Source: an uncultured bacterium
Lineage (GTDB): Bacteria > Fidelibacterota > Marinisomatia > Marinisomatales > TCS56
Length of the DNA: 64,000 nucleotides
Assembly (NCBI GenBank): GCA_964410945.1
Contig: CAYPJE010000003.1
Location: 3,398-67,397 of the forward strand
Reading direction: 5' to 3'
Within the stretch, counting starts at the first letter, position 1, and each line of letters begins with the position of its first letter. This document shows, in pieces, positions 11,666 through 55,070 of this stretch. The notes beneath the pieces were generated by a model. That model was not told where the DNA came from. It ran no database searches and saw only the letters and a program-made list of their open reading frames with translations. The position numbers and the translations under genes were made by a program.

Positions 11666-11689
11666 ATTAATCTCTATTGTTCGGGGTTA

Positions 11690-14524: not shown

Positions 14525-14534
14525 TGCTTCCTCT

Positions 14535-15938
14535 CTAGGCCGCGTCTTGGGCTTTACGTTTCATTTCACCAACCCGCAGCTTGCCCAGGCGAATCCATTG
14601 GACCAGCGGTATATGGGATGGACAGACAAAGGCACAGGAACCGCATTCGATACAATTCATGATACCTAATTCTTCAGCTGCCTCGGGCTGATCCTTTTCA
14701 GACAACCGGGCAATTCTGGTCGGCAATAAAAACATCGGGCAGGCCGTCACACAGGAACCACAACGAATACAGGGCATTGCCCGTTCGGCCGGTTCACCTT
14801 TTGCAGCTGTACAAACAATACCGCTGGTTGCCTTGACCACCGGCACATTCATATTGTACTGGGCCATACCCATCATCGGGCCGCCCATAAATACGTGGGA
14901 GGCTTCGTCTTTCAAACCACCACAGTAGTTCAGAATGTCGGCAAATGGCGTTCCAATCCGGGCCAGGACATTTTTCGGCTGGCTGATTCCATCACCGGTT
15001 ACCGTTACGATCCTGTTCACCAGTGGTTTTCCTTCCAGAACTGCGTCAGCCACCGCCATGGCGGTCCCAATATTATTGACCACCGTACCAACATCCATGG
15101 GCAATCCACCGGTGGGAACCTGGCGTTTCAACACGGACTGGATCAACATCTTTTCCGCGCCCTGGGGATATTTGACCTGGAGGGAAACAACCTTGAAATT
15201 ATATTTACCACGAACCACGGCATTACGCATGGCATCAATGGCATCGGGCTTGTTGTTCTCAATCCCGATAAATCCGTTTTTGACACCCAGGATTTTCATG
15301 ATCATGGCCATCCCGGTCAAGACCTTCTCCGATTGCTCCACCATTGCCCGATGATCAGCTGTGAGATAAGGTTCACATTCGCAACCGTTCAGAATAAAGG
15401 TATCGATCGGCTTATCCTTGGGTGGTGCGAGCTTCACATGGGTCGGAAAGGCTGCGCCCCCCATTCCGACGACTCCCGCCTCCCGGATACGTTGATTCAG
15501 ATCCTCTACACTGGCAGACTGCCAATCTTTGATCGGTGCCATCAGATTCCACTCATCCTCCTCGGCGGTACGTTTGATGTACACCATCTGAACCTTGCCG
15601 CCCACCGGATGGGGGAAAGTACCGATATCCTTAACCGTACCGGTTACCGAAGAATGTACCGGACTTGATACATAGGCCTCGCTGGAACCGATCACCTGGC
15701 CGGTTTTTACCTCGGCCCCTTTTTCAACCGCTACGGTGCAGGGAGCACCGATATGCTGCTGGAGGGGAATAAAAACATGGTCTGGTAAGGGAAGTGTTTC
15801 AATCGCCTCGGAACAGGTAAAATGCTTAAAGTCGTTCGGATGAACGCCCTTCTTGAAGGTAGGTAATTTCACAGTCTGTCCTCTTCGTAAAAATGCAGTA
15901 TTATAAAAACCGTTCTTTGTAGCCGAAACCGGGTTCAA
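14535..15938 (-). CDS. rnfC: Rnf complex subunit C
   Basis: GMGGAAFPTHVKL nucleotide-binding region. Two ferredoxin motifs, CIRCGSCVTACP and CIECGSCAFVCP. Confidence 0.9.
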   Translation of the reverse strand: MNPVSATKNGFYNTAFLRRGQTVKLPTFKKGVHPNDFKHFTCSEAIETLPLPDHVFIPLQQHIGAPCTVAVEKGAEVKTGQVIGSSEAYVSSPVHSSVTGTVKDIGTFPHPVGGKVQMVYIKRTAEEDEWNLMAPIKDWQSASVEDLNQRIREAGVVGMGGAAFPTHVKLAPPKDKPIDTFILNGCECEPYLTADHRAMVEQSEKVLTGMAMIMKILGVKNGFIGIENNKPDAIDAMRNAVVRGKYNFKVVSLQVKYPQGAEKMLIQSVLKRQVPTGGLPMDVGTVVNNIGTAMAVADAVLEGKPLVNRIVTVTGDGISQPKNVLARIGTPFADILNYCGGLKDEASHVFMGGPMMGMAQYNMNVPVVKATSGIVCTAAKGEPAERAMPCIRCGSCVTACPMFLLPTRIARLSEKDQPEAAEELGIMNCIECGSCAFVCPSHIPLVQWIRLGKLRVGEMKRKAQDAA

Positions 15939-16239: not shown

Positions 16240-17040
16240 ATGTTGATAAATTCAAAATATAAATATTTTGAGGAGTATATACTTGAAATCCAATCCAAGG
16301 GTAGATATTCATTAACCTTAGATGAATTGAAAACTAGATTTGATATTTCTGAAAAAGCTATTCTTCAAAAAATATTCAGGTTAAAAAACAAAAACCAACT
16401 GGCACAGGTGCGCCAGGAATTCTATGTCATTATTCCTCCTCAATACTCCATTCGAGGTATGGTGCCTCCAACACTCTTTATTGATGATATGATGGAATTT
16501 CTTAATAAAGAGTACTATGTAGGATTATTATCTGCTGCCGCTTTACACGGTGCCGGACATCAGCAGCCTATGGAATTTCAGGTTATAACCAAAAAGCCTG
16601 CTTTGCGTAGCATCAGAAATCAAAAACTTGTTATAAGTTTTTTTATAAAAGGTAAATGGGAACAGATCCAAATCAATGAAAAAAAAACTGAGACAGGATA
16701 CATTAAAGTTTCATCCCCTGCACTCACAGCTTTCGACCTTGTTTATTATAACAAAAAGATTGGAGGATTAAACCGAATTATTCCAATACTAGAAGACTTA
16801 GCCGAAAGCATCAATTCATATGAAATCAGAAAAGCCACCAAATTTCAAAAAATACCAACCATTCAACGTCTAGGCTATCTATTTGAAGTAATTGGTGCCA
16901 AGAAACTTGCCGATTCTCTTTTTAAAACAATAAATCAACAATCACTTAAAAAAACCCCACTCTCGTTGCTCTATAAGGAAAACAAAGGATGGGTTAATGA
17001 TAAATGGAATGTAATTGTAAATACAGAGCTTGATTTTTAA
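16240..17040 (+). CDS. type IV toxin-antitoxin system AbiEi-family antitoxin
   Basis: 266 aa. N-terminal wHTH-like region (LTLDELKTRFDISEKAILQKIFRLKNKNQL). Position and 1-nt overlap (TAATG) with an AbiEii gene. AT-rich. Confidence 0.7.
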   Translation: MLINSKYKYFEEYILEIQSKGRYSLTLDELKTRFDISEKAILQKIFRLKNKNQLAQVRQEFYVIIPPQYSIRGMVPPTLFIDDMMEFLNKEYYVGLLSAAALHGAGHQQPMEFQVITKKPALRSIRNQKLVISFFIKGKWEQIQINEKKTETGYIKVSSPALTAFDLVYYNKKIGGLNRIIPILEDLAESINSYEIRKATKFQKIPTIQRLGYLFEVIGAKKLADSLFKTINQQSLKKTPLSLLYKENKGWVNDKWNVIVNTELDF

Positions 17041-17828
17041 TGATACCAAGACGGTATATTGAAGAATGGAAAGAATTTGCTCCCTGGCCGGAAGATGCAC
17101 AGGTAGAGCAAGATCTCATTATTGAGAAAGCCGTACTGCAATTATTCAACGACCCATTCCTTCAACAGCGCCTTGCTTTCCGAGGTGGTACGGCTCTTCA
17201 TAAAATATATCTAAAACCTCAAGTGAGGTATTCGGAAGACATTGATCTTGTGCAAGTAAACGCAGAACATATCGGGGAAACAATAAATGCTGTACGCAAT
17301 CAATTAAATTTCCTTGGAAAACCGATAGTTAAACAAAAAGCAAACAACAATAGCCTGGTTTATCGATTTAGATCAGAAATAGCCCCAATTATAAATATGC
17401 GTCTCAAAATTGAAATCAATTGCCGTGAACATTTCACTGTTCTTGGGTACAAAAAGATAGATTATGGTATAAAGAATACATGGGGCACGGGGGAATGTAC
17501 ACTGTTATCCTATGAAGCAGAGGAAATGCTTGGAACCAAATTGAGAGCATTGTACCAAAGAAAGAAAGGACGCGATCTTTTCGACTTGTATCATGCAATT
17601 ACAAATTTGGATCTGGACACAGATATTCTTATAAAGTGCTACAAAAAGTACATTGCTTTTTCGGTAAATAAACCCCCAACAAAAGCACAATTTCTATTAA
17701 ACATAGAAGATAAACTGCAAAACCCTGACTTTACAGGAGACATTTATGCTTTATTAAGGCCTGGTGTGGAATATGATCAAAATAAAGCGTATGAGATTAT
17801 CAAAACCGAACTGATTGAAAAGATATAA
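17040..17828 (+). CDS. nucleotidyltransferase AbiEii/AbiGii-family toxin
   Basis: Hallmark FRGGTALHKIY ... RYSEDIDL motifs of the AbiEii (formerly DUF1814) family. Confidence 0.85.
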   Translation: MIPRRYIEEWKEFAPWPEDAQVEQDLIIEKAVLQLFNDPFLQQRLAFRGGTALHKIYLKPQVRYSEDIDLVQVNAEHIGETINAVRNQLNFLGKPIVKQKANNNSLVYRFRSEIAPIINMRLKIEINCREHFTVLGYKKIDYGIKNTWGTGECTLLSYEAEEMLGTKLRALYQRKKGRDLFDLYHAITNLDLDTDILIKCYKKYIAFSVNKPPTKAQFLLNIEDKLQNPDFTGDIYALLRPGVEYDQNKAYEIIKTELIEKI

Positions 17829-38488: not shown

Positions 38489-38606
38489 GTAGGGACAAGA
38501 TTCGAATCTTGTCCCTACCTGAAAATTATATTCCGATCAACTCCTTGGCAATTTTATCGGAATCGGTTTTGATCTTGTCGTGGAGTGAATTGCCATGGGA
38601 ATCCAT
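38489..38606. repeat. 118-bp direct repeat, right copy (terminator palindrome plus functional 3' end of the fumarate hydratase beta gene)
   Basis: See 30056..30173. Contains the perfect 30-bp palindrome GTAGGGACAAGATTC/GAATCTTGTCCCTAC and the last 26 codons plus stop of the 38526..39104 gene. Confidence 0.9.
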
Positions 38607-39104
38607 GGTTACCACACAGGGGAAATCCTTCACTTTCAGGACCCACATGGCTTCCGGTACGCCGAATTCCTCCAGCTTGATCACGTCGGTAACTTTTTCC
38701 ACCGACTTGGCCAGCAGGGTGGCGGCGCCACCGATGGCATGGAGGTAAACGGCACCTGATTCCTGCAGCCCTGCCAGAGTCTTGGCACCCATTCCGCCTT
38801 TCCCCATCACACCGCGCAGTTTATAATCTTTGATCACGTCAGCCTGGTAGGGCTCTTCGCGTATTGACGTTGTAGGCCCGGCCGCCACGAATTTCCATTC
38901 GTCACCTTCCTTGGATACCACCGGTCCGCAGTGATAGATCACCGAACCTTCCAGCAGGCTACGGACCTCCTCAGGCTGTTCTTCAATCAGCCAGGCATGG
39001 GCCGCATCACGACCAGTGACCATGATACCATTCAGGGCAACTTCATCACCAACCTTCAGCTGGCGAACATCTTCCTCATTCAGCGGTAATTGCATCCTAA
39101 TCAT
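38526..39104 (-). CDS. class I fumarate hydratase / Fe-S hydro-lyase, beta (C-terminal domain) subunit
   Basis: 192 aa. GRDAAH, GPVV, AAGPTTSIR and MGKGGMG motifs of the Fumerase_C/TtdB type. Confidence 0.85.
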   Translation of the reverse strand: MIRMQLPLNEEDVRQLKVGDEVALNGIMVTGRDAAHAWLIEEQPEEVRSLLEGSVIYHCGPVVSKEGDEWKFVAAGPTTSIREEPYQADVIKDYKLRGVMGKGGMGAKTLAGLQESGAVYLHAIGGAATLLAKSVEKVTDVIKLEEFGVPEAMWVLKVKDFPCVVTMDSHGNSLHDKIKTDSDKIAKELIGI

Positions 39105-39984
39105 AGCTCACCTCGCTTTCCCTGAAGGTCATTTCCCGGTGCCGGTCGGCCCAGCACATGTAGGCTATCGAGACAAAAAATGAGGCCGGCAGCCGATGGA
39201 CCTGGCCGATTTTCACGCCCAGTACGGTGGTCTTGCCACCGAATCCCAGGGGGCCGATCCCCAATTTGTTCAGATCGGTAAACAGCCGTTTTTCAAGTGC
39301 ATCCAGCTGTTCATCGGAATTACTGTCATCCAGTTTGCGGAACAATTGCTGCTTGGCCATGACCATACCTGTGGCCCGGTCACCGCCGACGCCAATACCC
39401 AGTACACCGGGAGCGCAGCCCAATCCCTGGGCCTTGTTTACCGCATCGATAATGCATTTGTACACGCCTTCAAGATTCCGGCCGGCTTTCAGGCCGCTGT
39501 CCGGGAGCTTGTATTGTGTCGACACATTCTCACAGCCACCACCTTTCAACGCCAGCTGAACCCGGATAGCCGGTTCGTCCCATTCATCAAAATGGATGTA
39601 TGGTGACATCACACCGGTATTATCACCTGAATTCTTACCGGTCACCGAATCAACGGCATTGGGACGCAGGTAGGCTTTGGCGGTTGCCATTTTAGTTGCT
39701 TCGACAATGGCGGATTCAACCTTCCGCAGGGATACACCCTCCGGAATAGTGACGAAATGAATATTAGTGCCCGTATCCTGGCAGATCGGAGTACTGTCAT
39801 CACGAGCCATATCCACATTTTTCAGCATCGATCCCAGGACCGATTTGGCAGCGCTGTCCTGATCCTCATTGTCGCGGGCTTCTTCCATGGCCTTAATCAC
39901 ATCTTGTGGAAGCTGCGTGGATGTACGGCGGATCAGTTCAAGAACCGCGTCCTGAAATTTGTCCACGTTCAGTTTGAAACTCAT
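39097..39984 (-). CDS. class I fumarate hydratase / Fe-S hydro-lyase, alpha (N-terminal domain) subunit
   Basis: PICQDTGT cluster-ligand motif. KGGGCEN. 8-nt overlap with the beta subunit gene. Confidence 0.85.
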   Translation of the reverse strand: MSFKLNVDKFQDAVLELIRRTSTQLPQDVIKAMEEARDNEDQDSAAKSVLGSMLKNVDMARDDSTPICQDTGTNIHFVTIPEGVSLRKVESAIVEATKMATAKAYLRPNAVDSVTGKNSGDNTGVMSPYIHFDEWDEPAIRVQLALKGGGCENVSTQYKLPDSGLKAGRNLEGVYKCIIDAVNKAQGLGCAPGVLGIGVGGDRATGMVMAKQQLFRKLDDSNSDEQLDALEKRLFTDLNKLGIGPLGFGGKTTVLGVKIGQVHRLPASFFVSIAYMCWADRHREMTFRESEVSYD

Positions 39985-40013
39985 ACTATCCCCTCTCTTT
40001 GGATTAACTACTG

Positions 40014-41047
<1,034 letters not shown>

Positions 41048-41051
<4 letters not shown>

Positions 41052-42883
41052 CCTACAATCTTTTCTACTGCTTCGATTACATCGCGGGCCAGAAATGGAC
41101 GGCCGCGGACGATATTCAACTGCAGCGGATCAATCAGATATTCCGACCGAATGATCTGTGCCAACTGTCCCAGATTGATTTCCGGGATCAAAACATGTTT
41201 GAATCCGGCCAGCACATCACCTAGGTTCCCGGGTAGTGGATTAACCCAGCGCAGGTGCACATGGCTGACAGCATGCCCTTTGGCCTGCAGTTTCTGCAGG
41301 GCTGCCCGGCAGGCACCGCGCGTGCTGCCCCAACTGAGGATCAGCAGATCACCACTGTCTTCACCAATCACCCGGCAGGGCTCGACATCATCAACCACAT
41401 TGGCAATTTTTTCCGCCCGCAGGGAAATCATCAGGTGATGGTTGTCGGGATCGTAGTTAACATTACCACTGCCATCTTCCTTCTCCAATCCACCGATGCG
41501 GTGTTCCAGTCCCGGGGTACCGGGAATGACCCATTTCCTGGATTTCGATTCCGGGTCCCGTTTGTAGGGCAGGAACGGTGGATCGGTTACATTAGTCAGC
41601 ATGGGTGGTTCGATCTCCGGCAGATCGTCAACATCAGGGATTTTCCATGGTTCGGAACCATTACCCAGATAGCCATCGGTGAGCAGCATGACCGGGGTCA
41701 TGTATTTAACAGCGATCTGGGCCGCCTCGAAAGCGGCATAGAAACAGTCACCGGGGGAGCGGGCCGTGATCACCGGGATCGGTGCCTCACCATTACGTCC
41801 GTAAATGGCCTGAAAAAGATCGGATTGCTCAGTCTTGGTTGGTAATCCGGTTGAAGGACCACCGCGTTGGACATTGACAATCACCAGAGGCAGTTCGGTC
41901 ATTACCGCCAACCCCATGGCTTCGGTTTTTAGAGCAACACCGGGGCCTGAAGTTCCTGTGGCTGCCAGACATCCGGCATAGGCCGCGCCGATAGCGGAGG
42001 TGATCCCCGCAATCTCATCTTCGGCCTGGAAAGTACGGACCTTGAAATTCCTGAAACCAGCCAGGTAATGCAGAATATCGCTGGCGGGTGTAATCGGGTA
42101 GCTGCCATAAAACAGCGGCAAACCCGACTTGGCGGCAGCGGCTACCAATCCCAGGCTGGTGGCATAATTACCGCTGACATTGCGATAAGTACCGGCCGGC
42201 AGTTTGGCTGCGTCAACTTTATAGTTTGTAGTGAAAATCCGGTTGGTCGAACCATAATTGTAACCGGCATTCAAAGCACGGGTATTAGCCTCAACAATGT
42301 CCGGTTTACTGGCGAATTTGGATTTCAGCCATTCGATGGTCGATTCAATTGGACGGTTGTACATCCAGTACAAAAGACCCAGAGCAAACATATTTTTTGT
42401 ACGCTCAACGATCTTGGATGACAGGCCCATATCTTCGCAGGCATGGCTTACCAGGCGACTCATATCAATCGGGTAAACAATATAATCTTTAAGGGTTTCA
42501 TCTTCCAGCGGATTAATCTCATAGCCGGCCAGCTTGAGGTTCTTGGTAATGAAACTGGAGGTATTAATAATTATAATTCCTCCACGAACCAGTTCCTTCA
42601 TATGTACTTTGAGGGCTGCCGGATTCATAGCCACCAGCACATCGGGATCATCACCTGGCGTGAAAATCTCCTGGGAGCTGAAGTGCAGCTGAAAAGCACT
42701 TACACCGGCCAGCGAACCCGCGGGGGCCCGGATTTCGGCCGGATAGTCAGGCAGAGTACTGAGATCGTTACCGATGATGGCAGTGGCACTGGTAAAACGG
42801 TCACCGGTGAGCTGCATCCCATCACCGGAATCACCGGCAAACCGGATGGTTACATCATCGATCTGTTTTAGGGTTTTAGGCAT
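41048..42883 (-). CDS. korA: 2-oxoglutarate:ferredoxin oxidoreductase alpha subunit (fused gamma-alpha type)
   Basis: 611 aa. N-terminal gamma-like domain (IRFAGDSGDGMQLTG). The central alpha domain is YPITPASD ... VNVQRGGPSTGLPT. Confidence 0.85.
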
Positions 42884-43984: not shown

Positions 43985-45031
43985 ATGAATAAAGAAGCTA
44001 TCCGACTTACCACCCTCAGCCACGGATCAGGGTGAGCCTGTAAAATAGGTCCGGAGGACTTGTCGAAAATTCTTGACTCCATCGAGACAGGCCATGATGA
44101 GCGCATTGTGGTCGGTTTTGATGGGACTGATGATGCGGCCGCAGTGCGACTCGATGATGGCCGGTTGTTGCTGCAGACGGTCGATTTCTTCACTCCCGTG
44201 GTGGACGATCCCTACCAATTCGGGCAGATCGCCGCTGCTAATTCACTATCCGATATCTATGCCATGGGCGGAAAACCGCTGTTTGCCCTCAATATCGTCG
44301 GCTTTCCGATCAAGTCCCTTCCCAGGGAAGTACTGACCAGGATTCTGCAAGGCGGTATCGACAAGGCCCGGGAGGCGGGAATTTCAATCGTTGGCGGCCA
44401 CAGTATTGACGATCCGGAACCAAAATACGGCCTGGTGGTGACCGGTGAAGTAGATGAATCGAGGATGCTGACCAACAGTAATGCCCGTCCGGGGGACACA
44501 TTGATTTTAACCAAACCGCTGGGAACCGGAATCATTGCCACTGCCATCAAACGCGGTACCGCCACTGAATCGGCTATTCAGGCAGCGGTTGAATCGATGA
44601 GCCAGTTGAACCAATTGGCCGCCGTCACGGCACAGGAATTGGACGCTCATTCGGTAACCGATGTTACCGGTTTCGGACTGCTTGGCCATCTGAGTGAAAT
44701 GTGTCGCGCCAGCAATGTTTCCGTAAGGGTTGATTTCTCAGCACTACCCTTCTTACCGACAGTTGAACAACTGGTGCAGGCCGATGTGATCCCGGGTGGA
44801 ACCAGGCGAAATCTTGAATACGCATCCAGGCATGTATCTTTCAACGATTCATTGTCCGACAATCAGAAATTGATGGCCGCCGATGCCCAGACTTCCGGAG
44901 GTTTACTGGTGGCGCTACCGGCTGACAAAGCCGGTGAATTCTGCTCTAAATACAATTCTCACTCAAATTTACCGGCTATCAAGGTGGGTACATTTACTGA
45001 GTCTCAGAAATATCTGATCAAGATCATTTAA
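43985..45031 (+). CDS. selD: selenide, water dikinase (selenophosphate synthetase), selenocysteine-containing
   Basis: ATG at 43985. Reads MNKEAIRLTTLSHGSG-TGA(44033..44035)-ACKIGPEDLSKIL, in frame with track ORF 44060..45031. This matches the E. coli SelD N-terminus [18 protein letters not shown], with U replacing Cys17. Confidence 0.85.
44045..44063 (+). promoter_or_regulatory. candidate SECIS hairpin downstream of the selD UGA
   Basis: ATAGGTCC-gga-GGACTTGT (8 pairings including two G-U), beginning 9 nt after the TGA. Confidence 0.35.
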
Positions 45032-45329: not shown

Positions 45330-45599
45330 ATGAAGCTTAACTGCTGGGAGGTGAATCGCTGCGGTCGAGAACTAGGGGGTAAAAACTCCAAGGAACTGGG
45401 TGTTTGCTGCTCTGTAAAATTTACTGCTTTTAATGGCACAAATAACGGATTCAACGGTGGAAGGTACTGTTGGGCCGTAGCCGGATCATTAAAAGACACA
45501 CCCAAAGATTGTATCCACAATCCCCCGGGTAATGATTGTACCGAATGTAATTTTTATTCCAAAGTCAAGGAGGAAGAAAGTATAAACTTCATTGCCTGA
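45330..45599 (+). CDS. small cysteine-rich two-CW-type protein
   Basis: 89 aa. NCWEVNRCGRE ... GRYCWAVAG ... CTECNFY pattern. SD GAAGGAG upstream. Confidence 0.55.
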   Translation: MKLNCWEVNRCGRELGGKNSKELGVCCSVKFTAFNGTNNGFNGGRYCWAVAGSLKDTPKDCIHNPPGNDCTECNFYSKVKEEESINFIA

Positions 45600-45677: not shown

Positions 45678-45983
45678 ATGAACTATTGGCGTGTGCCATT
45701 TGATATCAATAAAATTGAAATCCCCCATGGTGATATCCAAATCCTGGTCGAACGCTGCAAGGGCTGCGGCTTCTGTGTGGAATATTGCCCCAAGCAAACC
45801 CTTGAAATGTCGGCTGATTTTAATCGCAAGGGTTATCATTATCCTGATATAGTCCGCGAGGGAACCTGCGTGAACTGTAATCTATGTGAGACTATCTGCC
45901 CCGAATTTGCCATTTTCGTACTGGAGGATAAACCCCGGCACCCGGATGCCGATGAAGTGCTGGGAAAGGAAGGTGACCAATGA
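45678..45983 (+). CDS. 2-oxoacid:ferredoxin oxidoreductase delta subunit (2x[4Fe-4S] ferredoxin)
   Basis: CKGCGFCVEYCP and CVNCNLCETICP motifs. 4-nt overlap with the alpha subunit gene. Confidence 0.8.
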   Translation: MNYWRVPFDINKIEIPHGDIQILVERCKGCGFCVEYCPKQTLEMSADFNRKGYHYPDIVREGTCVNCNLCETICPEFAIFVLEDKPRHPDADEVLGKEGDQ

Positions 45984-47137
45984 AGGCTGATCCCAAAGGT
46001 GTTGCCACCGGAGCCCACTATCTGGATGGTGACCACGCCTGTTCCGAAGGTTCAATCGCCGCCGGTTGCCGATTCCTGGCCGGCTATCCCATCACCCCCT
46101 CCACGGAAGTAGCCGAACGAATTGCCGTCCGCTTCCCAAAAGTCGGAGGTATGTTCATCCAGATGGAGGACGAGCTGGCATCGATGGCCGCTGTGGTTGG
46201 TGCCACCTGGTCCGGTGTTAAGGCCATGACTGTTACCTCAGGGCCCGGCTTCTCCCTGATGATGGAAAACCTCGGGCTGGCCGTTATGATGGAAACACCC
46301 TGCGTAGTGGTCAACGTTCAGCGCGGCGGTCCATCTACCGGGTTGCCAACCCTGACCGGACAGGCCGATATGATGCAGGCCCGCTGGGGATCGCACGGGG
46401 ATTATGAAATAATCGCCATTTCACCCAATTCCCCGCAGGAATGCTTCGACCTGTCCATTACCGCCTTTAACCTGGCGGAAAAATGGCGCGTCCCGGTCCT
46501 GTTCATGATGGACGAATGTGTCGGTCACATGACTGAAAAAGTCGTTATTCCCGAAGCGGATGAAATCGAGATCACTCCTCGTGAATACTACCAGGGCACA
46601 AACGGTTCCTACCGACCGTATAAATTTAATGAAGGTGAACTGACTCCAATGATCAAGGCCGGTGATGGCCATAACATACATATTACCGGGCTGACCCACG
46701 ACGAACGTGGCTATCCAATTATCAATGCCGAAGCCCAGGAGAAAAACGTAACCCACCTGGTAAATAAAATCCGCGACAATGCGGACAAGATCCATATAAT
46801 TGAAGAGGATCAGATAGAAGGTGCCGAGGTGGTTGTGATATCATATGGTATTTCATCACGAGTGGCCCTGAAAGCGGTGGATGATGCCCGCACCAAAGGA
46901 ATAAAAGTCGGAACGATGCGCCTGGTTACGGTATGGCCCTTCCCTGAGAAACGAATCCTTGAATTGGCCGGCAAGGTTAAGGCCCTGGTGGTTCCGGAGA
47001 TCAATCTGGGACAAGTAGTTTTGGAAGTTGAACGCTGTGCCCAGGGTAAATGCAAAACTATCCTGGTACCACATGCCGGTGGCTGGGTTCATGATCCAAT
47101 CAATATCTTAAAAGCAATCGAAGAAGGTGCGTCATGA
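45980..47137 (+). CDS. 2-oxoacid:ferredoxin oxidoreductase alpha subunit
   Basis: YPITPSTE and VNVQRGGPSTGLPT motifs. 385 aa. Confidence 0.85.
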   Translation: MKADPKGVATGAHYLDGDHACSEGSIAAGCRFLAGYPITPSTEVAERIAVRFPKVGGMFIQMEDELASMAAVVGATWSGVKAMTVTSGPGFSLMMENLGLAVMMETPCVVVNVQRGGPSTGLPTLTGQADMMQARWGSHGDYEIIAISPNSPQECFDLSITAFNLAEKWRVPVLFMMDECVGHMTEKVVIPEADEIEITPREYYQGTNGSYRPYKFNEGELTPMIKAGDGHNIHITGLTHDERGYPIINAEAQEKNVTHLVNKIRDNADKIHIIEEDQIEGAEVVVISYGISSRVALKAVDDARTKGIKVGTMRLVTVWPFPEKRILELAGKVKALVVPEINLGQVVLEVERCAQGKCKTILVPHAGGWVHDPINILKAIEEGAS

Positions 47138-48072
47138 GTGAAATTACCGCTGATATGACCAGTACGCTCCAAATCCCCGACCCGGAAGAGACACTAAAGC
47201 ATCCCATGGAACGCTTCCTGCGCACCGAACGTCTACCTCACATCTGGTGTGCTTCCTGCGGAATCGGCACCGTGATCACCGCCTACATCACCGCCCTGCA
47301 GAAGTCCGAACTGGACCCGGAAAAAGTGGCTGTTGTATCCGGTATCGGCTGCTCTGGTCGTGCCGCAGGCTATTTAAGGCTGGATTCCTTCCACTCCACC
47401 CATGGCCGGGCGATTCCCTTTGCCACCGGACTGGCAGTTGGCAATCCGGAATTGAAAGTGACCGTCATTAGTGGCGACGGTGATTTAATCGCCATCGGTG
47501 GTAATCATCTGATCCACGCCGCCCGGCGGAATATCAACATGACCATCATCTGTATCAATAATTTCAACTATGCCATGACCGGAGGCCAGGCCGGGCCAAC
47601 CACACCGGTTACGGCTAATGCCTCCACGGCACCTTACGGCTGTTACGAATTCCCCTTCAACCTGCCCTTCCTGGCGGAATCATCGGGTGCAATTTTCGTG
47701 GCCCGCTGGACGGCCCTGCATATCAGGCGGATGGCTAAATCCATAGAAAAAGCCCTGCTCAAACCAGGCTTCTCATTTATTGAGATAATTGCTCCCTGCT
47801 CCACCCTTTATGCCCGGCGCAATCGTCTGGGATCGGGGCTGGATCTGATGAAATTTTATCATGATAATGCTATCATCAAGCACGGAATAGACACCCGGGA
47901 AGTTGATATCGACTTCCAGGAAAGTATCATGGTGGGTGAATTCGTCGATAAGGATAAACCTCATTTCCTGGCCAAACGGGATCAGTTCCTGAAAATGAAA
48001 CTGGGTGATAAATACATCCCCTATCTGGGCCCTGATTCCACTCCTTCAACCATGAAGCAGGGAGTAGAATAA
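47134..48072 (+). CDS. 2-oxoacid:ferredoxin oxidoreductase beta subunit (TPP-binding)
   Basis: WCASCGIG, GIGCSGR and SGDGDLIAIGGNH motifs. Confidence 0.85.
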   Translation: MSEITADMTSTLQIPDPEETLKHPMERFLRTERLPHIWCASCGIGTVITAYITALQKSELDPEKVAVVSGIGCSGRAAGYLRLDSFHSTHGRAIPFATGLAVGNPELKVTVISGDGDLIAIGGNHLIHAARRNINMTIICINNFNYAMTGGQAGPTTPVTANASTAPYGCYEFPFNLPFLAESSGAIFVARWTALHIRRMAKSIEKALLKPGFSFIEIIAPCSTLYARRNRLGSGLDLMKFYHDNAIIKHGIDTREVDIDFQESIMVGEFVDKDKPHFLAKRDQFLKMKLGDKYIPYLGPDSTPSTMKQGVE

Positions 48073-48635
48073 TGGATATTCGATTTTCTGGTTTTGGCGG
48101 GCAGGGAATAATCAAATCCGGAATCCTGATCGGCAAGGCAGCCTCATTGCACGACAATAAATTCGGCACAATGACCCAGAGCTTCGGCCCCGAAGCCCGG
48201 GGTGGCGCCTGTTCCGCCCAGGTGGTTGTCGATGATAAACCGATACTTTATCCCTATATCGTAGCACCTCAAATCCTGGTATCGATGTCACAGGAGGCTT
48301 ACGAGAAATTCCTCGATGAACTGGTTCCCGACGGTATCCTGCTCACTGATTCCGACCTGGTAAAGCCGGAACGAACCCGGGATGATGTCCGCATGTACTC
48401 GATCCCTTCGACCCGGATTGCCGAAGATATGGGTAATCGTATTTTTGCCAACGTGGTCATGGTTGGATTCTTAACCGGTATTACCAGAGTGATAAGTGCC
48501 GAATCGGTGAAGGCCGCTTTGCCTGATTCGGTACCGGAACGTTTTATCGATGTAAATATCAAAGCCTTTGAGCGCGGCTATGATTATGCGCTCGAACAAT
48601 TGGAGAAGGAAACCAAAGAACCGGTCAAAGCCTGA
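48072..48635 (+). CDS. 2-oxoacid:ferredoxin oxidoreductase gamma subunit
   Basis: IRFSGFGGQGI ... FGPEARGG motifs. Start overlaps the beta subunit stop. Confidence 0.85.
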   Translation: MDIRFSGFGGQGIIKSGILIGKAASLHDNKFGTMTQSFGPEARGGACSAQVVVDDKPILYPYIVAPQILVSMSQEAYEKFLDELVPDGILLTDSDLVKPERTRDDVRMYSIPSTRIAEDMGNRIFANVVMVGFLTGITRVISAESVKAALPDSVPERFIDVNIKAFERGYDYALEQLEKETKEPVKA

Positions 48636-48641
48636 GAAAAC

Positions 48642-50978
48642 ATGAGCAGTACAGCTACCTCCCCTGTTAAGGATAAAATTTTTCCCGCTAACTCCACCCT
48701 GATCATTGATGGTCCCCAACGGCAGGAATACACGGTTGGCCCGGTGGAACCATCGCCCTGCACAATGGCCTGTCCCGCCGGTGTAAATGTAAAAGCCTAT
48801 GTTTCACTGATGGCTGCCGGTCGTTTCCGGGAGGCCTTGGAAGTAATTCGTGAACGCAATCCCCTGCCGGGAATCTGTGGCCGGGTATGCACGCATCCCT
48901 GCGAGGCGGCCTGCAATCGGAATCAGGTTGATCAACCGGTGGCGGTCAGATGGCTGAAACGTTTCGCTGCCGATTGGGAACTGGCCAATCAGATTGCAGA
49001 TCCGGTTCCTTTCAATACAGCAAAGACCGGAAAAATTGCCGTGATCGGTTCCGGACCCAGCGGTTTAACAGCGGCCAACGACCTGGTACGCCAGGGTTAT
49101 GCGGTGACAGTTTTTGAGGCAATGGATGAACCGGGTGGTATGCTGATCGCCGGAATTCCGGCCTACCGCCTGCCCAGAAAAATATTATCCACTGAAATTA
49201 AATACCTTGAGAAACTTGGCATTAAAATCAGAACCGGGGAAAAAATCAGCGGTGATAAGGCACTGGAAAAATTATTTGCCCAGGGTTATAAGGCAATTTA
49301 CCTGGCAATCGGTGCCCAGGATGGAAAAAAATTAAATATCAAGGGAGAGGGTAAAACCGAAGGAGTACTGGATGCTGTCACTTTCCTGAATCAGGTAAAT
49401 CTGTCAGCAGCCAGTAAACCGGGTGATAATATTATTGTAATCGGCGGCGGTAACTCTGCCGTCGATTCAGCCCGGACCGCCCTGCGCCTGGGAAGTAAAA
49501 AAGTGCATATCGTCTATCGCCGAACCAGGCAGGAAATGCCGGCTGACGAAGAGGAAATAGTGGAAGCGGAACACGAAGGTGTGGAAATAACCTATCTGGT
49601 CGCCCCCCTGGAAGTACTGGTGGACAGTGATAAAATCACCGGACTGAAGTGCCAGAAGATGAAACTGGGTAAACCGGATGACAGTGGGCGGCGGCGGCCG
49701 GTTCCAATCGAAGGTTCGGAATTTACCATTGAATGTGACACGGTGATTTCCGCCGTCAGCCAGCAGCTGCGCTTGGACTTCGGTCTGGGTGAAGTCGAAT
49801 TATCGCGCTGGAATACGTTGGCAGCCGATGAGTCAACCATGGCTACCAGTCAGCCGGGTATCTTCGCCGGAGGTGATGCGGTAACTGGTCCCAGCACGGT
49901 GATTGATGCCATTGCCGCCGGGCACCGGGCCGCCGAATCAATCATGCGGTATCTGGATAATGAACCTTTGCAGGCAGACCCATTGCCGGCACCGGGAACA
50001 GAATTTGAAATAAAGATCGATATCGACCAGCGGCCGGCCCAGAACCGGGCTGTTATGCCGGCCAAGAAGATTCAGCAACGATTGGGTAATTTTGATGAAG
50101 TCGAGTTTGGTTTTGATGAAACGACCGCCATTGCTGAAGCCCGACGCTGTCTGCGCTGTGGCCCATGTGTCGAATGCGACAGTTGTCTGACACTATGCGA
50201 TAAGCAACCGGTTCTGCTGACCATCCCGGACCAGTCAGGTGAATATTTATTCCGTGTTCCTGCTGCCCTTCAGTCACAAATAAAAGCCAGTGGCGGGCTT
50301 TCGGTTGATTTGAAAACCGGAGGTAAAGCAACTTCACCGGTCCTGCTGCAGTCCCTCCAACCTCAAGTGGCAGCGAATATCTGCCGCGGTTGCGGCGAGT
50401 GTATCAACATCTGTGAATATGATGCTATCAGCATGATCCCGACCGAAGGTGATTTATCCGTTTCAGTAGTCAATAACGATCTTTGTCGGTCCTGTGGTAC
50501 CTGCGTGGCAACCTGTCCCAACGGTGCCATGCTGCCGGGTTATACCGATTATCAATGGCTGGATTCAAAGCTGGCACATCTCAAACCGGGGAAAATCAAC
50601 CTGGTGGTATTTTCCTGCCGCTGGAATGGTTCCAGTCTGGCAGCGGATGAGATCAGCAAACTCCAGTCCGGCAGAATAAACCTCAATCTGGTGCAGACAA
50701 TCTGCGGGGGACGCATTGATCCAAGCTTTACATTACGGGCAATTTCGGCCGGAGCCACCGGAGTCCTGATCAGCACATGTGCCGATGATGATTGCCATTA
50801 CGGTACCGGTGCCAGCCAGACAAAAGCAGCTTTTGAAGAAACAAAAAACCTGGTTCATATTCTAGGAACCGATACCAGGCGGATCAAATTAATCCAGATT
50901 CCCGGGAATGATTCCGTTGAATTCATTAAAGCCGTTAAATCCTTTGGCACCAAATTAAAAAAACTGGCGAGTAACTAG
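48642..50978 (+). CDS. GltD-like NAD(P)H flavoprotein fused to ferredoxin and MvhD-like domains
   Basis: GltD N-terminal cluster region CPAGVNV...GRVCTHPCEAACNR. GSGPSGLTAA and GGGNSAVD Rossmann motifs. CxxCxxCxxxC motifs. C-terminal FSCRWNG...CGGRID...CHYG (MvhD-like). Confidence 0.8.
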   Translation: MSSTATSPVKDKIFPANSTLIIDGPQRQEYTVGPVEPSPCTMACPAGVNVKAYVSLMAAGRFREALEVIRERNPLPGICGRVCTHPCEAACNRNQVDQPVAVRWLKRFAADWELANQIADPVPFNTAKTGKIAVIGSGPSGLTAANDLVRQGYAVTVFEAMDEPGGMLIAGIPAYRLPRKILSTEIKYLEKLGIKIRTGEKISGDKALEKLFAQGYKAIYLAIGAQDGKKLNIKGEGKTEGVLDAVTFLNQVNLSAASKPGDNIIVIGGGNSAVDSARTALRLGSKKVHIVYRRTRQEMPADEEEIVEAEHEGVEITYLVAPLEVLVDSDKITGLKCQKMKLGKPDDSGRRRPVPIEGSEFTIECDTVISAVSQQLRLDFGLGEVELSRWNTLAADESTMATSQPGIFAGGDAVTGPSTVIDAIAAGHRAAESIMRYLDNEPLQADPLPAPGTEFEIKIDIDQRPAQNRAVMPAKKIQQRLGNFDEVEFGFDETTAIAEARRCLRCGPCVECDSCLTLCDKQPVLLTIPDQSGEYLFRVPAALQSQIKASGGLSVDLKTGGKATSPVLLQSLQPQVAANICRGCGECINICEYDAISMIPTEGDLSVSVVNNDLCRSCGTCVATCPNGAMLPGYTDYQWLDSKLAHLKPGKINLVVFSCRWNGSSLAADEISKLQSGRINLNLVQTICGGRIDPSFTLRAISAGATGVLISTCADDDCHYGTGASQTKAAFEETKNLVHILGTDTRRIKLIQIPGNDSVEFIKAVKSFGTKLKKLASN

Positions 50979-50979
50979 T

Positions 50980-52128
50980 ATGGATACTGAACTGATCACC
51001 GCCGTACACAACACCAATGCCCTGGCCTGCCTGGAGTGCGGGAAATGTACCAGTGTTTGTCCTGTTTCCCGATTCAGCCAGGATTATTCGCCACGGTTGA
51101 TGCTGAATAAGGCTGTCAAACAGGAATTCTCCGGTCTCTTCGCCGACTATGATTTATGGTCCTGTCTGACCTGCAAGCGCTGTGACCTGGTCTGCCCCAG
51201 CAATATCAGTTATATCGAATTGACACAAACTTTACGTAACCGGGCCGATTCGACCCAATTCAAGGGCCAGTGTTCCCATTCCAGTGTTCTGGAAACACTC
51301 CAGAAGATGATGACCACCAGGGAATTGAATCAGAATAGGGTGGATTGGATTACTGGGGATCTGGATGTCTCATTTGATACCGGAGAGGTTCTTTATTTCG
51401 TCGGTTGTGCTCCTTACTTCGATGCCTTTTTCACTGAGCTGGAACTATCCACTCTGGAAGCCGCCCTCAGCAGTATCAAGCTTCTGAATCTTCTGGATAT
51501 AAAGCCGGTTTTACTGCCTCAGGAACGCTGCTGCGGTCACGATTTATACTGGAATGGCGATATCGAAAATTTCAGGATGCTGGCCGAACAGAACCTGGAA
51601 ATGATCGAAGCTACCGGTGCAAAAACAATCCTGTTCTCTTGCGCCGAATGCCAGAGCGCCTTCGAAAATCTTTATAAAAACAACGGATTTAAAGTCCCCT
51701 GGAAATTACAGCATATGAGCCAGTTCCTGGCTGAAAAAGTGGATTCGGGAGAACTTCAATTGGCGGAAAATGATACTCCCATCACCTTCCAGGATCCCTG
51801 CCGGCTGGGACGCCATTTGAATGAATACGATGCTCCGCGGGCCTTATTGAAACCCAATGGTGAAACCAATCTGCTGGAAATGAAACAAACCAGTAAGGGA
51901 TCCCTGTGCTGTGGTGTCGTAGCCTGGATGAATTGTGATGGAACAACCCGTAAAATCCAGAATGAACGGTTGGATCAGGCCTATACCACCGGGGCCGAAA
52001 TCCTGGCAGTAGCCTGCCCGAAATGCCATATCCATCTGCAATGCACTCAACAGCATACCAGTGTAGAGGGACCTGAAATCAAGATTAGAGATATTTCTAC
52101 AATTACATTAGAAAGAATTGAGAATTAA
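50980..52128 (+). CDS. HdrD-like (HdrC+HdrB fused) Fe-S protein with CCG domains
   Basis: CLECGKCTSVCP and CLTCKRCDLVCP ferredoxin motifs. Cys-rich CCG elements ERCCGHD, DPCRLGRH, SLCCG. Confidence 0.8.
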   Translation: MDTELITAVHNTNALACLECGKCTSVCPVSRFSQDYSPRLMLNKAVKQEFSGLFADYDLWSCLTCKRCDLVCPSNISYIELTQTLRNRADSTQFKGQCSHSSVLETLQKMMTTRELNQNRVDWITGDLDVSFDTGEVLYFVGCAPYFDAFFTELELSTLEAALSSIKLLNLLDIKPVLLPQERCCGHDLYWNGDIENFRMLAEQNLEMIEATGAKTILFSCAECQSAFENLYKNNGFKVPWKLQHMSQFLAEKVDSGELQLAENDTPITFQDPCRLGRHLNEYDAPRALLKPNGETNLLEMKQTSKGSLCCGVVAWMNCDGTTRKIQNERLDQAYTTGAEILAVACPKCHIHLQCTQQHTSVEGPEIKIRDISTITLERIEN

Positions 52129-52282
52129 ACACAGAGACACAAAGTCCACGGAGAACAGAGAAAAAAACCGGATTGAAGTGAAAATGCTCAGGCTATTAAT
52201 CATACTTTCCCCAATTTTCATTTTCCAATCTACAATTTCCAATTCTCTCTGTGTCCTTGGTGATCTTAGTGCCTTGGTGGTA
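52129..52282. repeat. intergenic inverted-repeat element between hdrD-like and hdrA
   Basis: ACACAGAGACACAAAG... at the left, ...CTCTCTGTGTCCTTGGTG at the right. The centre has TTTCCAAT-type short tandem motifs. Confidence 0.4.
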
Positions 52283-52306
52283 AAAAATTAAAAAAAGGAG
52301 CAATAG

Positions 52307-54793
52307 ATGAATGACGACGGTCTGAGAGTCGGGGTGTTCGTATGTGAATGCGGCAAGAATATAGCCGGTTCACTGGATTGCCAGAAGGTTAGCGACTATG
52401 CCGCTACCCTGCCCGATGTGGCCTGTTCGGTGGTAAATAAATATACCTGTGCCGAACCGGGCCAGCAGGAGATCAAGCGCTACATCAAGGAGCACAACCT
52501 CAACCGGGTGGTTGTAGCTTCCTGTACGCCGCGTATGCACGAACCCACCTTCCGCAATTGTGTATCCGAAGCCGGACTGAATCCATACCTGATGGAAATG
52601 GCCAATATTCGCGAACACGTAAGCTGGGCCCATATCAATGACTGGGACGCAGCGACACAGAAGGCCATGGATTCGGTACGTATTGCCGTGGCCCGTGCCA
52701 AATTATTAAGACCCCAAACCGAGGCCCGCATCCCTGTAACCAGGGAAGTGCTGGTGATCGGTGGCGGAGTCGCCGGTATTCAATCTGCGCTGGACCTGGC
52801 CGATGCTGGTTACCAGGTTAACTTAGTAGAAAAGGAGGCATCCATTGGAGGGATCATGGCCGCGCTGGACAAGACCTATCCCACCATGGATTGTTCCATA
52901 TGAATACTCGGACCAAAAATGATGGATGTCGGTCGACATCCCCGGATTAATTTATATACGCACAGCGAAATAGAAGACGTCAGCGGCTACATCGGCAACT
53001 TCCAGGTGAAGGTGCGGAAAAAGGCCCGCTATGTAAATGAAGATGAATGCAACGCCTGTGGTGAATGTGAGAAGGTCTGCCCCGTGGTTGGACCCGATGG
53101 ATTCCAGGAAGGTTTTTCCTCCCATAAGGCAATCTACATGCCGTTCCCCCAGGCCGTACCATCGGTCTATATTTTGGACGATGAACTCTGTCTGGGCCAT
53201 AATCCCATTGCCTGCGGGAAATGTGCCGATGTCTGCGAGAAACAGTGCATCGATTTCGACATGGAAGATGAAATCATCGAATTGGATGTCGGTGCCGTGA
53301 TCGTTGCCACCGGGATGGATGTTTATGATCCTACTGAGATGGATGAATACGGCTACACCCGTTTCGAAAATGTTATCACCAGCATGGAATTCGAACGGCT
53401 GATTTCAGCCGGTGGTCCCACGGAAGGTCATTTCGTCCGGCCCAGCGACCAGGAAACACCAAAACGGATCGCCTTCATCCAGTGTGTTGGATCGCGGTCC
53501 AACAGCGCGGTGGGTAATCCTTACTGCAGCAATATCTGCTGCATGAATACCGTCAAGGACAGCCTGTTGCTGAAGGATCATTATCCTGACATAGAAATCA
53601 CTGTATTCTACATGGATATCCGGGCCTTTGGTAAAGGTTTCGAGGACCTTTTCATGCGCAGTAAGATGGCCGGGGTCCAGTATATCCGCGGTTTGCCCGG
53701 TGAATTCTTTGAAGATCCAACCACAAGGAATATCACCTTGATTGCCGAAGACACCAATACCGGTGCCATCCAGGATTATGAATTCGATACGGTGGTACTT
53801 TCAGTTGGTGTAATTCCCCGCAAGGACAGTGATATGGTCCGGCAGCTCTTCACCCTGTCCCGCACCGAAGACGGATTCTTCATGGAATCCCATCCCAAGC
53901 TCAAGCCGGTTGATGCTCCTACCGGCGGGGTGTTCTTTGCCGGTTGCGTGGAATATCCCAAGGATGTGAAGGACAGCGTTACCCAGGCCAGTGCTGCGGC
54001 GGCCCGCGCCCAGGTACTGCTGAACGCCGGTGATATAAGTATCGAGGCCATTACCTCCGAATGCCATACCGAGGACTGTTCATCCTGTGGCATCTGTGTT
54101 AAAGTATGTCCGTTCAACGCTATCCGTGGTGGCGATGCCAAAGCCAAGATACCCGCCGAGGTGATCGAAGCAATGTGCAAAGGCTGTGGTACCTGCGCCG
54201 CCGAATGTAACTTCGATGCCCTGACCATGAAGCATTTCGAGGATGCCCAGTATATCGCCCAGATCGATGCCATGCTGGAAGGCGACAATATGGCAAATAC
54301 AGTGGTCTTTGCCTGCAACTGGTGTTCATACGCCGGTGCCGACCTGGCTGGTTTGTCGCGCCTGCAGTACCCGGCCAATCAACGTATCATGCGTACCATG
54401 TGCAGCGGCCGCGTTGATTCGGAATTCATCCTGCATGCCTTTGAAAAAGGCGCCCCGATCGTCCTGGTATCCGGCTGTCATTTCGCCGATTGCCATTACA
54501 TTGATGCCAATCGCTGGACGGTCAAGCGGGTCGAGAAACTGTGGGATAAAATGGAAAAACTTGGTATTCGTCCCGAACGGTTGCAGCTGGAGTGGATCTC
54601 CGCTGCCGAAGGCCAGAAATGGGCCCGCACGATGCGTGAGCTGGAGGAGATGCGCCAGAAGGTCACCAAGGACGAGGTAAAGCACACCATACAAGTCCTA
54701 AAAGAGGAACGGGAAAAGGCTGAAGCCAGGGCCGCCAAAAAAGCAGAAAAGAAGCTGAAGCCCAAACCAGTTCCGGTAAAGGCGGAAGCATAA
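52307..54793 (+). CDS. hdrA: heterodisulfide reductase subunit A-like flavoprotein with C-terminal MvhD domain, selenocysteine-containing
   Basis: Track ORFs 52307..52903 and 52919..54793 are in the same frame, separated only by TGA (52901..52903). The read-through gives KTYPTMDCSI-U-ILGPKMMDVGRHPRINL, matching the conserved HdrA DCS-x-C-ILxPK motif. GGGVAGIQSA FAD motif. C-terminal FACNWCSY...CSGRVD...CHY. Confidence 0.85.
52924..52941 (+). promoter_or_regulatory. candidate SECIS hairpin downstream of the hdrA UGA
   Basis: GGATGTC-ggtc-GACATCC: perfect 7-bp stem with a 4-nt loop GGUC, beginning 20 nt after the TGA. Confidence 0.55.
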
Positions 54794-54848
54794 GATCGAA
54801 ATCTGTCACCTTGCACCAGTTGCCGGGTAGCACAATATAGTAAAAAAT

Positions 54849-54913
54849 GTCATGCTGAGCCTGTCGAAGCATGATAATCAATGTCAGTCACCCTTCGACA
54901 GGCTCAGGGTGAC
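54849..54913. repeat. hairpin-forming intergenic repeat, family A, copy 3
   Basis: GTCATGCTGAGCCTGTCGAAGCA-...-CCCTTCGACAGGCTCAGGGTGAC. The arms are near-perfect inverted repeats. It sits just 3' of hdrA. Confidence 0.75.
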
Positions 54914-54929
54914 AATAGTTAAAACTGTA

Positions 54930-55070
54930 ATGGAAGAAGCACCATTCAAATGTCTGCGCTGCGGCCATGATTTCACTATGCCATATGATAAAAATGTCAT
55001 GGTGGAACGGGCCTGCCCCAAATGTGGCAGCAACAGCGTCCGTCGGCTAAAGAAAAAACCGGCCAAATAA
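54930..55070 (+). CDS. small zinc-ribbon protein
   Basis: MEEAPFKCLRCGHDF...CPKCGSNSVRR (two CxxC pairs). The track ORF start at 54852 lies inside the repeat, so I trimmed to Met27. Confidence 0.5.
   Translation: MEEAPFKCLRCGHDFTMPYDKNVMVERACPKCGSNSVRRLKKKPAK

Follow-up and report, generated by a model that had tools for sequence, protein, structure and literature searches.

A heterodisulfide reductase-like hdrA2 gene interrupted by an in-frame UGA probably encodes a selenocysteine-containing HdrA-MvhD protein in an uncultured bacterium

A stretch of 64,000 nt from an uncultured bacterium (GTDB lineage Fidelibacterota; Marinisomatia; Marinisomatales; TCS56; assembly GCA_964410945.1, contig CAYPJE010000003.1, positions 3,398 to 67,397 of the forward strand), hereafter the window, carries an hdrA-like gene that the open reading frame (ORF) track divides in two. 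In the sequence itself, ORFs 52307..52903 and 52919..54793 lie in one frame and have the TGA at 52901-52903 as their sole separator, exactly to the base as the original prediction had described from the sequence without database searches. The frame opens with ATG 52307, meets the TGA as codon 199, passes the next ATG at 52919 and closes with the stop at 54791-54793. Five in-frame codons (ATA CTC GGA CCA AAA) bridge the TGA and ATG 52919 and encode the conserved residues ILGPK. Read-through of the UGA gives a product of 828 aa, in agreement with the predicted length, that contains the sequence LDKTYPTMDCSI-U-ILGPKMMDVGRHPRINLY, where U stands for selenocysteine (Sec). The products of gene callers for the same interval are two ORFs of 198 and 624 aa. 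A Shine-Dalgarno-like AGGAG lies 6 nt 5′ of ATG 52307, and inspection of the sequence found no comparable ribosome-binding site before ATG 52919. The gene is the last in a co-oriented cluster, and the features considered here are collected in Table 1.

Table 1. Coordinates of the hdrA gene, its predicted recoding signals, the encoded domains and the neighbouring genes in the window.
Feature	Position	Strand	Basis
hdrA2(Sec)-mvhD, single gene, 828 aa + stop (predicted)	52307..54793	+	Translation; alignment to 5ODC_A; NF040770; tblastn
Shine-Dalgarno-like AGGAG	52296..52300	+	Read from sequence
UGA codon 199, predicted Sec, CSIU motif, equivalent to Cys197 of solved HdrA	52901..52903	+	Alignment and comparative counts
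Bacterial SECIS apical hairpin (predicted)	52924..52941	+	Fold; bSECIS criteria; pair counts; Sec/Cys contrast
HdrA core, aa 7-657: N-terminal Fe-S, FAD/thioredoxin-reductase-like, inserted and C-terminal ferredoxin domains	52325..54277	+	5ODC_A, 8RVU_a; Pfam Fer4, FAD_oxidored, Pyr_redox_2
Fused MvhD/FlpD domain, aa 666-781, Cys form (CNWC)	54302..54649	+	PF02662, E 4e-45; MvhD chains 5odc_D, 9sw2_D
HdrD-like (fused HdrC/HdrB-type) subunit, 4Fe-4S dicluster, two CCG domains	50980..52128	+	Pfam CCG, Fer4_8
NAD(P)-binding GltD/NfnB-like flavoprotein, 2x[4Fe-4S], C-terminal MvhD	48642..50978	+	Pfam Fer4_20, Pyr_redox_2, FlpD; NF009410, 533 bits (cut-off 516)
2-oxoacid/2-oxoglutarate:ferredoxin oxidoreductase, delta, alpha, beta and gamma subunits	45678..48635	+	Pfam/NCBIfam
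selD (selenophosphate synthetase), itself a selenoprotein	43985..45031	+	Translation; TIGR00476, 409 bits (cut-off 125)

For alignment, the stop in the read-through product was replaced by Cys. Residues 7-657 align to 5ODC_A, the crystallised HdrA of Methanothermococcus thermolithotrophicus, with an E-value of 2.8e-244 and no gap near the UGA, so that the alignment across this codon, proposed as a check on the original prediction, came out in its favor. Other structure matches of the read-through protein were 8RVU, 9SFI and 7BKB. The match to solved HdrA was unambiguous at the sequence level. All Cys ligands of the N-terminal cluster are kept relative to 5ODC_A, the motifs VCxCG, YxCAxPG, ASCTPR and DCSI(U) align with it, and the FAD-binding Rossmann motif VIGGGVAG is matched by Pfam FAD_oxidored and Pyr_redox_2. 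The protein scores 1171.8 bits against the NCBIfam model NF040770 (hetero_SS_HdrA2; cut-off 1100), covering profile positions 1-775 of 777. The MvhD-like domain and the Lys/Ala/Pro-rich C-terminal tail behind it, both of which had been predicted, were likewise found.

The UGA had been predicted to fall on the conserved Cys of a DCS-x-C-IL-x-PK motif, and it does: its position corresponds to Cys197 of 5ODC_A, the second Cys of the DCSxC (DCSIC) motif. Our homologue set consisted of the best 120 database matches, 116 of them full-length (about 802-865 aa, 65-69% identity; many named HdrA2, Chloroflexota), and Cys occupies this position in all 116. The four nearest homologues (89-100% identity) are fragments of 623-624 aa that start at the downstream ATG; the contigs that carry them have the TGA, the division into 198 + 624 aa and the gene neighborhood in common with the window. 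In orthologous loci, tblastn alignments run across the TGA over residues 1-828, the remaining ORF is intact and highly conserved, and the TGA is kept in independent assemblies from NCBI, ENA, JGI and Logan. No genuine two-gene split at this point was seen in the homologues, and the ILGPK residues between TGA and ATG are conserved.

A degenerate DNA pattern (D-C-S/T-x-TGA-I-L-x-P-K), searched in one genome per GTDB species, returned at least 120 loci. This codon is thus TGA in at least 120 species, and every match listed was an HdrA homologue with a frame open past the TGA. The phyla represented among the matches listed were Desulfobacterota, Chloroflexota, Planctomycetota, Bacillota, KSB1, Zixibacteria, Calditrichota, Neomarinimicrobiota, Gemmatimonadota, Acidobacteriota and Cloacimonadota, along with Asgard archaea and a metagenome-assembled genome (MAG) labelled Bathyarchaeota; the cultured Desulfosarcina variabilis was among them. 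The nearest named relative is a Neomarinimicrobiota MAG (L111), at 80% identity. Together with the gap-free HdrA alignment, this distribution bears out the proposal that an hdrA-like gene is interrupted by a Sec UGA.

As predicted, a perfect 7-bp hairpin begins 20 nt after the TGA (GGATGTC at 52924-52930, loop GGTC at 52931-52934, GACATCC at 52935-52941), with its apical loop 27 nt after the UGA. The published model of the bacterial selenocysteine insertion sequence (SECIS; bSECIS for the bacterial type) specifies a loop of 3-9 nt with G in the first two loop positions, an upper stem of 4-16 bp, a UGA-to-loop distance of 16-37 nt and a minimum free energy of -7.5 kcal/mol or lower (PMC13188914). 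The hairpin agrees with this model on every count, having a 4-nt GGUC loop, a 7-bp stem, a spacing of 27 nt and a folding energy of -10.2 kcal/mol for the 24-nt hairpin alone (z = -2.05). Perfect hairpins with 7 bp or more that fit the bSECIS geometry lie downstream of 12 of the 2617 TGA trinucleotides in the window (0.46%). Single-sequence thermodynamics is unable to decide the SECIS question, and the hairpin by itself is only suggestive. A lower helix predicted from the single sequence (UCGG 52908-52911 with CCGG 52942-52945) was dropped, as it is not conserved in relatives.

Comparison among relatives was decisive. We counted pairs in 60 distinct sequences of a protein-defined ILGPK subfamily, and 94.8% of cells were paired in the register seen in the window, as against 24-56% with the 3′ arm slid by 1-3 nt. 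The pair at alignment columns 29/36 was C-G in 30 sequences, U-A in 19 and U-G in 8, and the C-G and U-A variants both recur within KSB1, Anaerolineae, Desulfobacteraceae and Planctomycetota. RNAalifold predicted five of the seven pairs from the same alignment, with a small covariation term; we therefore based the assessment on counting the pairs directly and on comparing Sec with Cys forms. The control for the latter consisted of 115 distinct genes of the Cys form from metagenomes, in which the flanking motif is the same. All seven pairs were present in 44 of 55 Sec forms and the GGUC loop in 48 of 55, whereas most Cys forms had two to five pairs and loops that vary. Where the peptide is the identical D[VA]GRHP, the codons of the Sec forms are fixed as GAT, GTC/GCC, GGT (51/51), CGA/CGG/AGG and CAT, and GUC/GCC is coupled with CGA/CGG. 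In the few Cys forms with this peptide, by contrast, synonymous codons are scattered and the hairpin is mostly absent. Three archaeal (Asgard-type) Sec forms have no hairpin at this place, which is expected because archaeal SECIS elements lie in the 3′ untranslated region. Because of the pairing in register, the covariation, the contrast between Sec and Cys forms and the frozen synonymous codons, we conclude that the hairpin is an RNA element selected jointly with the UGA, and on such comparative data a chance hairpin is untenable.

Several hairpin classes were seen among Sec-HdrA genes in a survey of loci L008-L127 at offsets of +18..+40 from the TGA. The class resembling that of the window is GGAUGYC-GGUC-GRCAUCC. 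Genes with the peptide E-A-G-R-S-P have GAGGCC-GGUC-GGUCUC, and an Anaerolineae class has UGACGC-GGC-GCGUCA, offset by about 1.5 nt. In a large Desulfobacterota class (SM-U-ILSPKLVEVGRHP), folding in the window's register is only weak and GGUC stands at +26.

The selD gene, located about 8 kb upstream of hdrA, contains an in-frame TGA of its own at 44033-44035 (HGSG-U-ACK; MNKEAIRLTTLSHGSG-U-ACKIGP). A SECIS-like hairpin follows it at 44045-44063 (GGUCC-GGA-GGAC, loop GGA), and both TGA and hairpin are conserved in the orthologous contigs L001 and L004. A SelD that itself requires Sec would be strong internal evidence that the Sec machinery exists in this organism. Gene callers shorten selD to about 309-323 aa. 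The loop is spaced 17 nt from the UGA in selD versus 27 nt in hdrA; one SelB would therefore have to serve both.

Taken together, we interpret 52307..54793 as one gene for an HdrA2-type protein, that is, HdrA fused to MvhD, in which the UGA at codon 199 is predicted to be decoded as Sec; we assign this a probability of about 0.93. A number of observations weigh against it. Neither selA nor selB was found in the 64-kb window by Pfam and NCBIfam searches of 58 ORFs, which include most of the window's ORFs of 120 aa or more, nor did ARAGORN report a tRNA-Sec there. The SECIS and folding check suggested with the original prediction was favorable as regards the bSECIS model and the energy of the hairpin, but the 60-nt region folds no better than shuffles (z = -0.40), and the z-score of a 75-nt region is likewise unremarkable. 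True two-sided covariation is seen in one stem pair only, the other pairs being invariant, in part because they are also constrained by coding. The absence of an Rfam model at the hairpin (window at gathering thresholds; 52880-52980 at E up to 10) could be listed here as well; it means just that no model matched and is no evidence against a SECIS.

A likeness to the Escherichia coli fdhF SECIS, pointed out in the original prediction, is borne out in part. The sequence of that SECIS is present in the fdhF gene in 5419 of the 5426 complete E. coli genomes and on folding likewise forms an apical GGUC loop. Both elements are hairpins 3′ of the UGA with a 4-nt apical GGUC loop, whose G and U presumably contact SelB. 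Also to be set against our interpretation, however, the present stem is without the bulged U of the fdhF element, and its loop lies at +30..+33 from the U of the UGA, compared with +21..+24 in fdhF, which is 9 nt farther. There is no similarity in stem sequence, nor a conserved lower helix that includes the UGA. By analogy, the present hairpin would work like the fdhF SECIS, but the two do not belong to one sequence family.

Other explanations of the in-frame TGA fit the data less well. Were it a true stop, the locus would encode a 198-aa Fe-S/FAD N-terminal fragment and a 624-aa remainder starting at ATG 52919. Public gene calls, for this gene as for its near relatives, do without exception give 198-aa and 623/624-aa products, and termination at the UGA under selenium starvation would yield the shorter one. 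Such a split would, however, cut the FAD-binding domain inside a conserved motif, leave conserved HdrA residues encoded in frame between the TGA and an ATG that has no ribosome-binding site, and put the stop on a Cys invariant in the 116 full-length homologues with a hairpin specific to Sec forms behind it; we consider a true stop very unlikely. A lone in-frame stop in an otherwise intact gene is also the usual signature of a sequencing or assembly error, or of an inactivating mutation in a pseudogene. This explanation was rejected as already refuted by the conservation of the TGA, which recurs in the independent assemblies and occupies this codon in at least 120 species of many phyla, in genes whose remaining frame is intact and highly conserved, and the chance that it applies is negligible.

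It is also highly improbable that the UGA is read as another amino acid, whether through a reassigned code (Trp, Gly) or by near-cognate or Cys insertion. UGA is known to be reassigned in some uncultured bacterial lineages, and in other systems a shortage of selenium can lead to Cys at Sec codons. In the window, however, TGA is the ordinary stop for 16 of 44 long ORFs, and for this reason we take it as not reassigned. When all in-frame TGAs flanked on either side by open frame were scanned, just two cases in the window proved credible, both at the catalytic Cys/Sec of selenoprotein families (SelD and HdrA), with gene ends and noise making up the rest, and the homologues have Cys at the position in question, never Trp or Gly. 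A final alternative concerns the hairpin, which could be unrelated to Sec decoding and either a by-product of the MDVGRHP codons or an intrinsic terminator of the minus strand. A consensus scan does call the reverse complement (52941-52924, then ATCATTTTTG) terminator-like, the folding z-score of the region is weak, and six of the seven pairs are nearly invariant. The terminator was nevertheless rejected: terminator-like sites are not enriched (3 found versus 3.0 expected), and no minus-strand gene ends at the site. A codon by-product, for its part, fits poorly with Cys forms that mostly do without the hairpin and vary their synonymous codons even around the same peptide, with the freezing of Gly GGT, Val GTC, Ala GCC and His CAT in Sec forms, and with archaeal Sec forms that lack the hairpin. 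We therefore regard an unrelated hairpin, too, as very unlikely.

Selenocysteine in HdrA has precedents, as the original prediction stated for some methanogens and Deltaproteobacteria. The exchange of Cys for Sec at the HdrA CxxU site is documented in both groups (PMC1794560; PMC13188914, where HdrA appears as NF040770), and 16 bacterial Sec-hdrA genes, seven of them in Syntrophobacter fumaroxidans, have been described (PMC1794560). HdrA has been a catalogued selenoprotein family of bacteria and archaea since about 2005, and the present gene is a further member. It belongs to the same family as the Sec-HdrA of Methanococcales/Methanopyrus and Deltaproteobacteria/Firmicutes, with Sec at the same residue (C-S-I-U), and shares with the bacterial members a SECIS inside the coding region right after the UGA. 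It differs from known Sec-HdrA in its HdrA2 architecture with a C-terminal MvhD fusion, and in having HdrD-like, GltD/MvhD and 2-oxoacid:ferredoxin oxidoreductase genes as neighbors rather than an hdrA-frhD-frhG-frhA hydrogenase operon; no hydrogenase genes were found near the hdrA locus. Because the nearest named relative is a Neomarinimicrobiota MAG, methanogens and sulfate reducers are both improbable as the host, which is more likely an anaerobe related to Marinimicrobia.

Closer parallels in architecture come from biochemically studied complexes. The HdrA2B2C2 enzyme of Methanosarcina acetivorans (PMC5296606) has the HdrA-MvhD fusion in common with the present protein, which passes the HdrA2 model, and by analogy ferredoxin-linked flavin-based electron bifurcation would be the expected chemistry of both. 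The M. acetivorans enzyme works with reduced coenzyme F420 (F420H2), the coenzyme M-coenzyme B heterodisulfide (CoM-S-S-CoB) and separate HdrB2 and HdrC2 subunits, whereas here a fused HdrD-like partner and a probable NAD(P)-binding donor subunit are encoded; the HdrA2 paper does not mention selenocysteine (PMC5296606). With HdrABC-MvhAGD (5ODC) and the Hdr-Vhu-Fwd complex of Methanococcus maripaludis (PMC13518236), the present protein shares the whole HdrA core, including the cluster Cys residues, and Hdr-Vhu-Fwd has its Sec197 at the same site as Sec199 here. In these two complexes, however, MvhD forms a subunit of its own and provides the docking site for a [NiFe] hydrogenase, while in the present protein it is fused.

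The role of the residue may be considered in this light. Cys197 has been described as a ligand that one HdrA protomer supplies to the N-terminal [4Fe-4S] cluster of its partner (PMC9012536). For the Sec-containing M. maripaludis enzyme, a Cys-Sec197 selenylsulfide has been proposed as a relay from FAD to the N-terminal cluster, with a role that its authors call unresolved (PMC13518236). By analogy, Sec199 may be either a cluster ligand or one half of a selenylsulfide relay, and neither is favored over the other. The present gene opens no new question in this respect, as that of Sec197 has already been stated (PMC13518236).

The genes upstream of hdrA suggest how the protein might operate. The HdrD-like protein is likely the disulfide-reducing partner: judged by its domains, it would supply that branch. 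Of the Sec loci, 87 returned a tblastn hit of any kind, and 56 of these have a homologue of the HdrD-like gene within the 8 kb of the locus; in every case where both genes were found, it lies immediately upstream of hdrA. The GltD/MvhD flavoprotein is likely the electron-input subunit. The same gene order was seen in L001, L004, L005, L111 and L145, and the full arrangement is found both in the Neomarinimicrobiota MAG (L111) and in a Cys-form metagenome contig. Based on the homology to HdrABC and HdrA2B2C2 (PMC5296606), the function is most likely that of a soluble flavin-based bifurcating/confurcating complex joining NAD(P)(H), ferredoxin and some disulfide.

Following the bacterial paradigm, decoding would proceed by binding of SelB with Sec-tRNA(Sec) to the GGUC-loop hairpin 3′ of the UGA, which would be kept close to the ribosomal A site and allow Sec to be inserted without termination. 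Selenophosphate would be supplied by the SelD encoded 8 kb upstream, which would itself need the same machinery. Homology and gene order suggest that the resulting Sec-HdrA2 forms the FAD-containing electron-bifurcating core of a soluble complex, in which disulfide reduction would fall to the HdrD-like CCG protein and mid-potential electrons would enter through the NAD(P)-binding GltD/MvhD protein. The complex may exchange low-potential electrons with ferredoxin that is also used by the 2-oxoacid:ferredoxin oxidoreductase and by Rnf. We offer only as a tentative suggestion, and one with the odds against it, that the cluster (korDABC-like oxidoreductase, GltD/MvhD, HdrD-like CCG protein and Sec-HdrA2) represents an uncharacterised bacterial bifurcating/confurcating complex that would connect reduced ferredoxin derived from 2-oxoacids, and NAD(P)(H), with a disulfide in Marinimicrobia-like and other uncultured anaerobes. 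If true, near-universal Sec at the Cys197 site in such lineages would amount to tuning of the low-potential branch, by way of an Fe-Se ligand or a selenylsulfide relay.

The main value of these results lies in the correction of annotations. Gene calls from NCBI, JGI/IMG, ENA and Logan store the Sec forms as unnamed fragments of 198 aa and 623/624 aa (clusters of P0001-P0003, P0008 and P0132-P0136). The split of 52307..54793 in the ORF track and in public calls is an annotation artefact, and selenoprotein HdrA is systematically mis-called in metagenome annotations. Metabolic reconstructions of uncultured anaerobes therefore miss full-length bifurcating HdrA2 and undercount selenoproteins. Of modest wider use is the comparative set of at least 120 Sec forms with a hairpin in the same register and Cys forms without it, which provides a clean case of a SECIS constraining both the codon choice and the peptide 3′ of Sec; the alignment is ready for an HdrA-specific bSECIS model, absent from Rfam. 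What novelty remains lies in the uncharacterised gene cluster around hdrA, not in the recoding event.

Some further features of the locus and the window were recorded. The 178-nt spacer between the hdrD-like gene and hdrA (52129-52306) contains a short direct repeat (TTTCCAAT...ATTTCCAAT), and hdrA may have its own promoter or a regulatory site there; in L006, the same spacer holds an inserted ORF of the PDDEXK_3 family. Just 3′ of hdrA, at 54841-54921, lies an imperfect inverted repeat with 34-nt arms that are 79% complementary and 13 nt apart (GTCATGCTGAGCCTGTCGAAGCATGA / TCACCCTTCGACAGGCTCAGGGTGAC). The beginning of a small Zn-ribbon ORF (54852-55070) falls within this repeat, which could be a repetitive extragenic palindromic (REP)-like element or a terminator. 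The GltD/MvhD and HdrD-like proteins (48642-52128) gave partial, sub-threshold matches to NCBIfam NF045663 ("diclust_near_Sec", a pyridine nucleotide-disulfide oxidoreductase/dicluster-binding protein), whose name suggests a recurrent link to selenium genes. In the interval from selD to the oxidoreductase operon, the plus strand encodes at 45330-45596 a small protein with two CW domains (NF045718, 77 bits).

Elsewhere in the window, a probable Rnf-type cluster occupies 10829-15938 on the minus strand, with RnfC at 14535-15938 and RnfD at 13445-14524 according to Pfam. The four ORFs 3′ of RnfD (10829-13448) were assigned as G, E, A and B from their size and order only. Such a cluster fits a ferredoxin-centred energy metabolism. 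A second, two-subunit 2-oxoacid:acceptor oxidoreductase (alpha 41048-42883, beta 40014-41051) adjoins an Fe-S fumarate hydratase alpha/beta pair at 38526-39984, the whole spanning 38526-42883 on the minus strand. Finally, an AbiEi antitoxin and AbiEii nucleotidyltransferase toxin pair at 16240-17828 on the plus strand makes up a type IV toxin-antitoxin or abortive-infection module.

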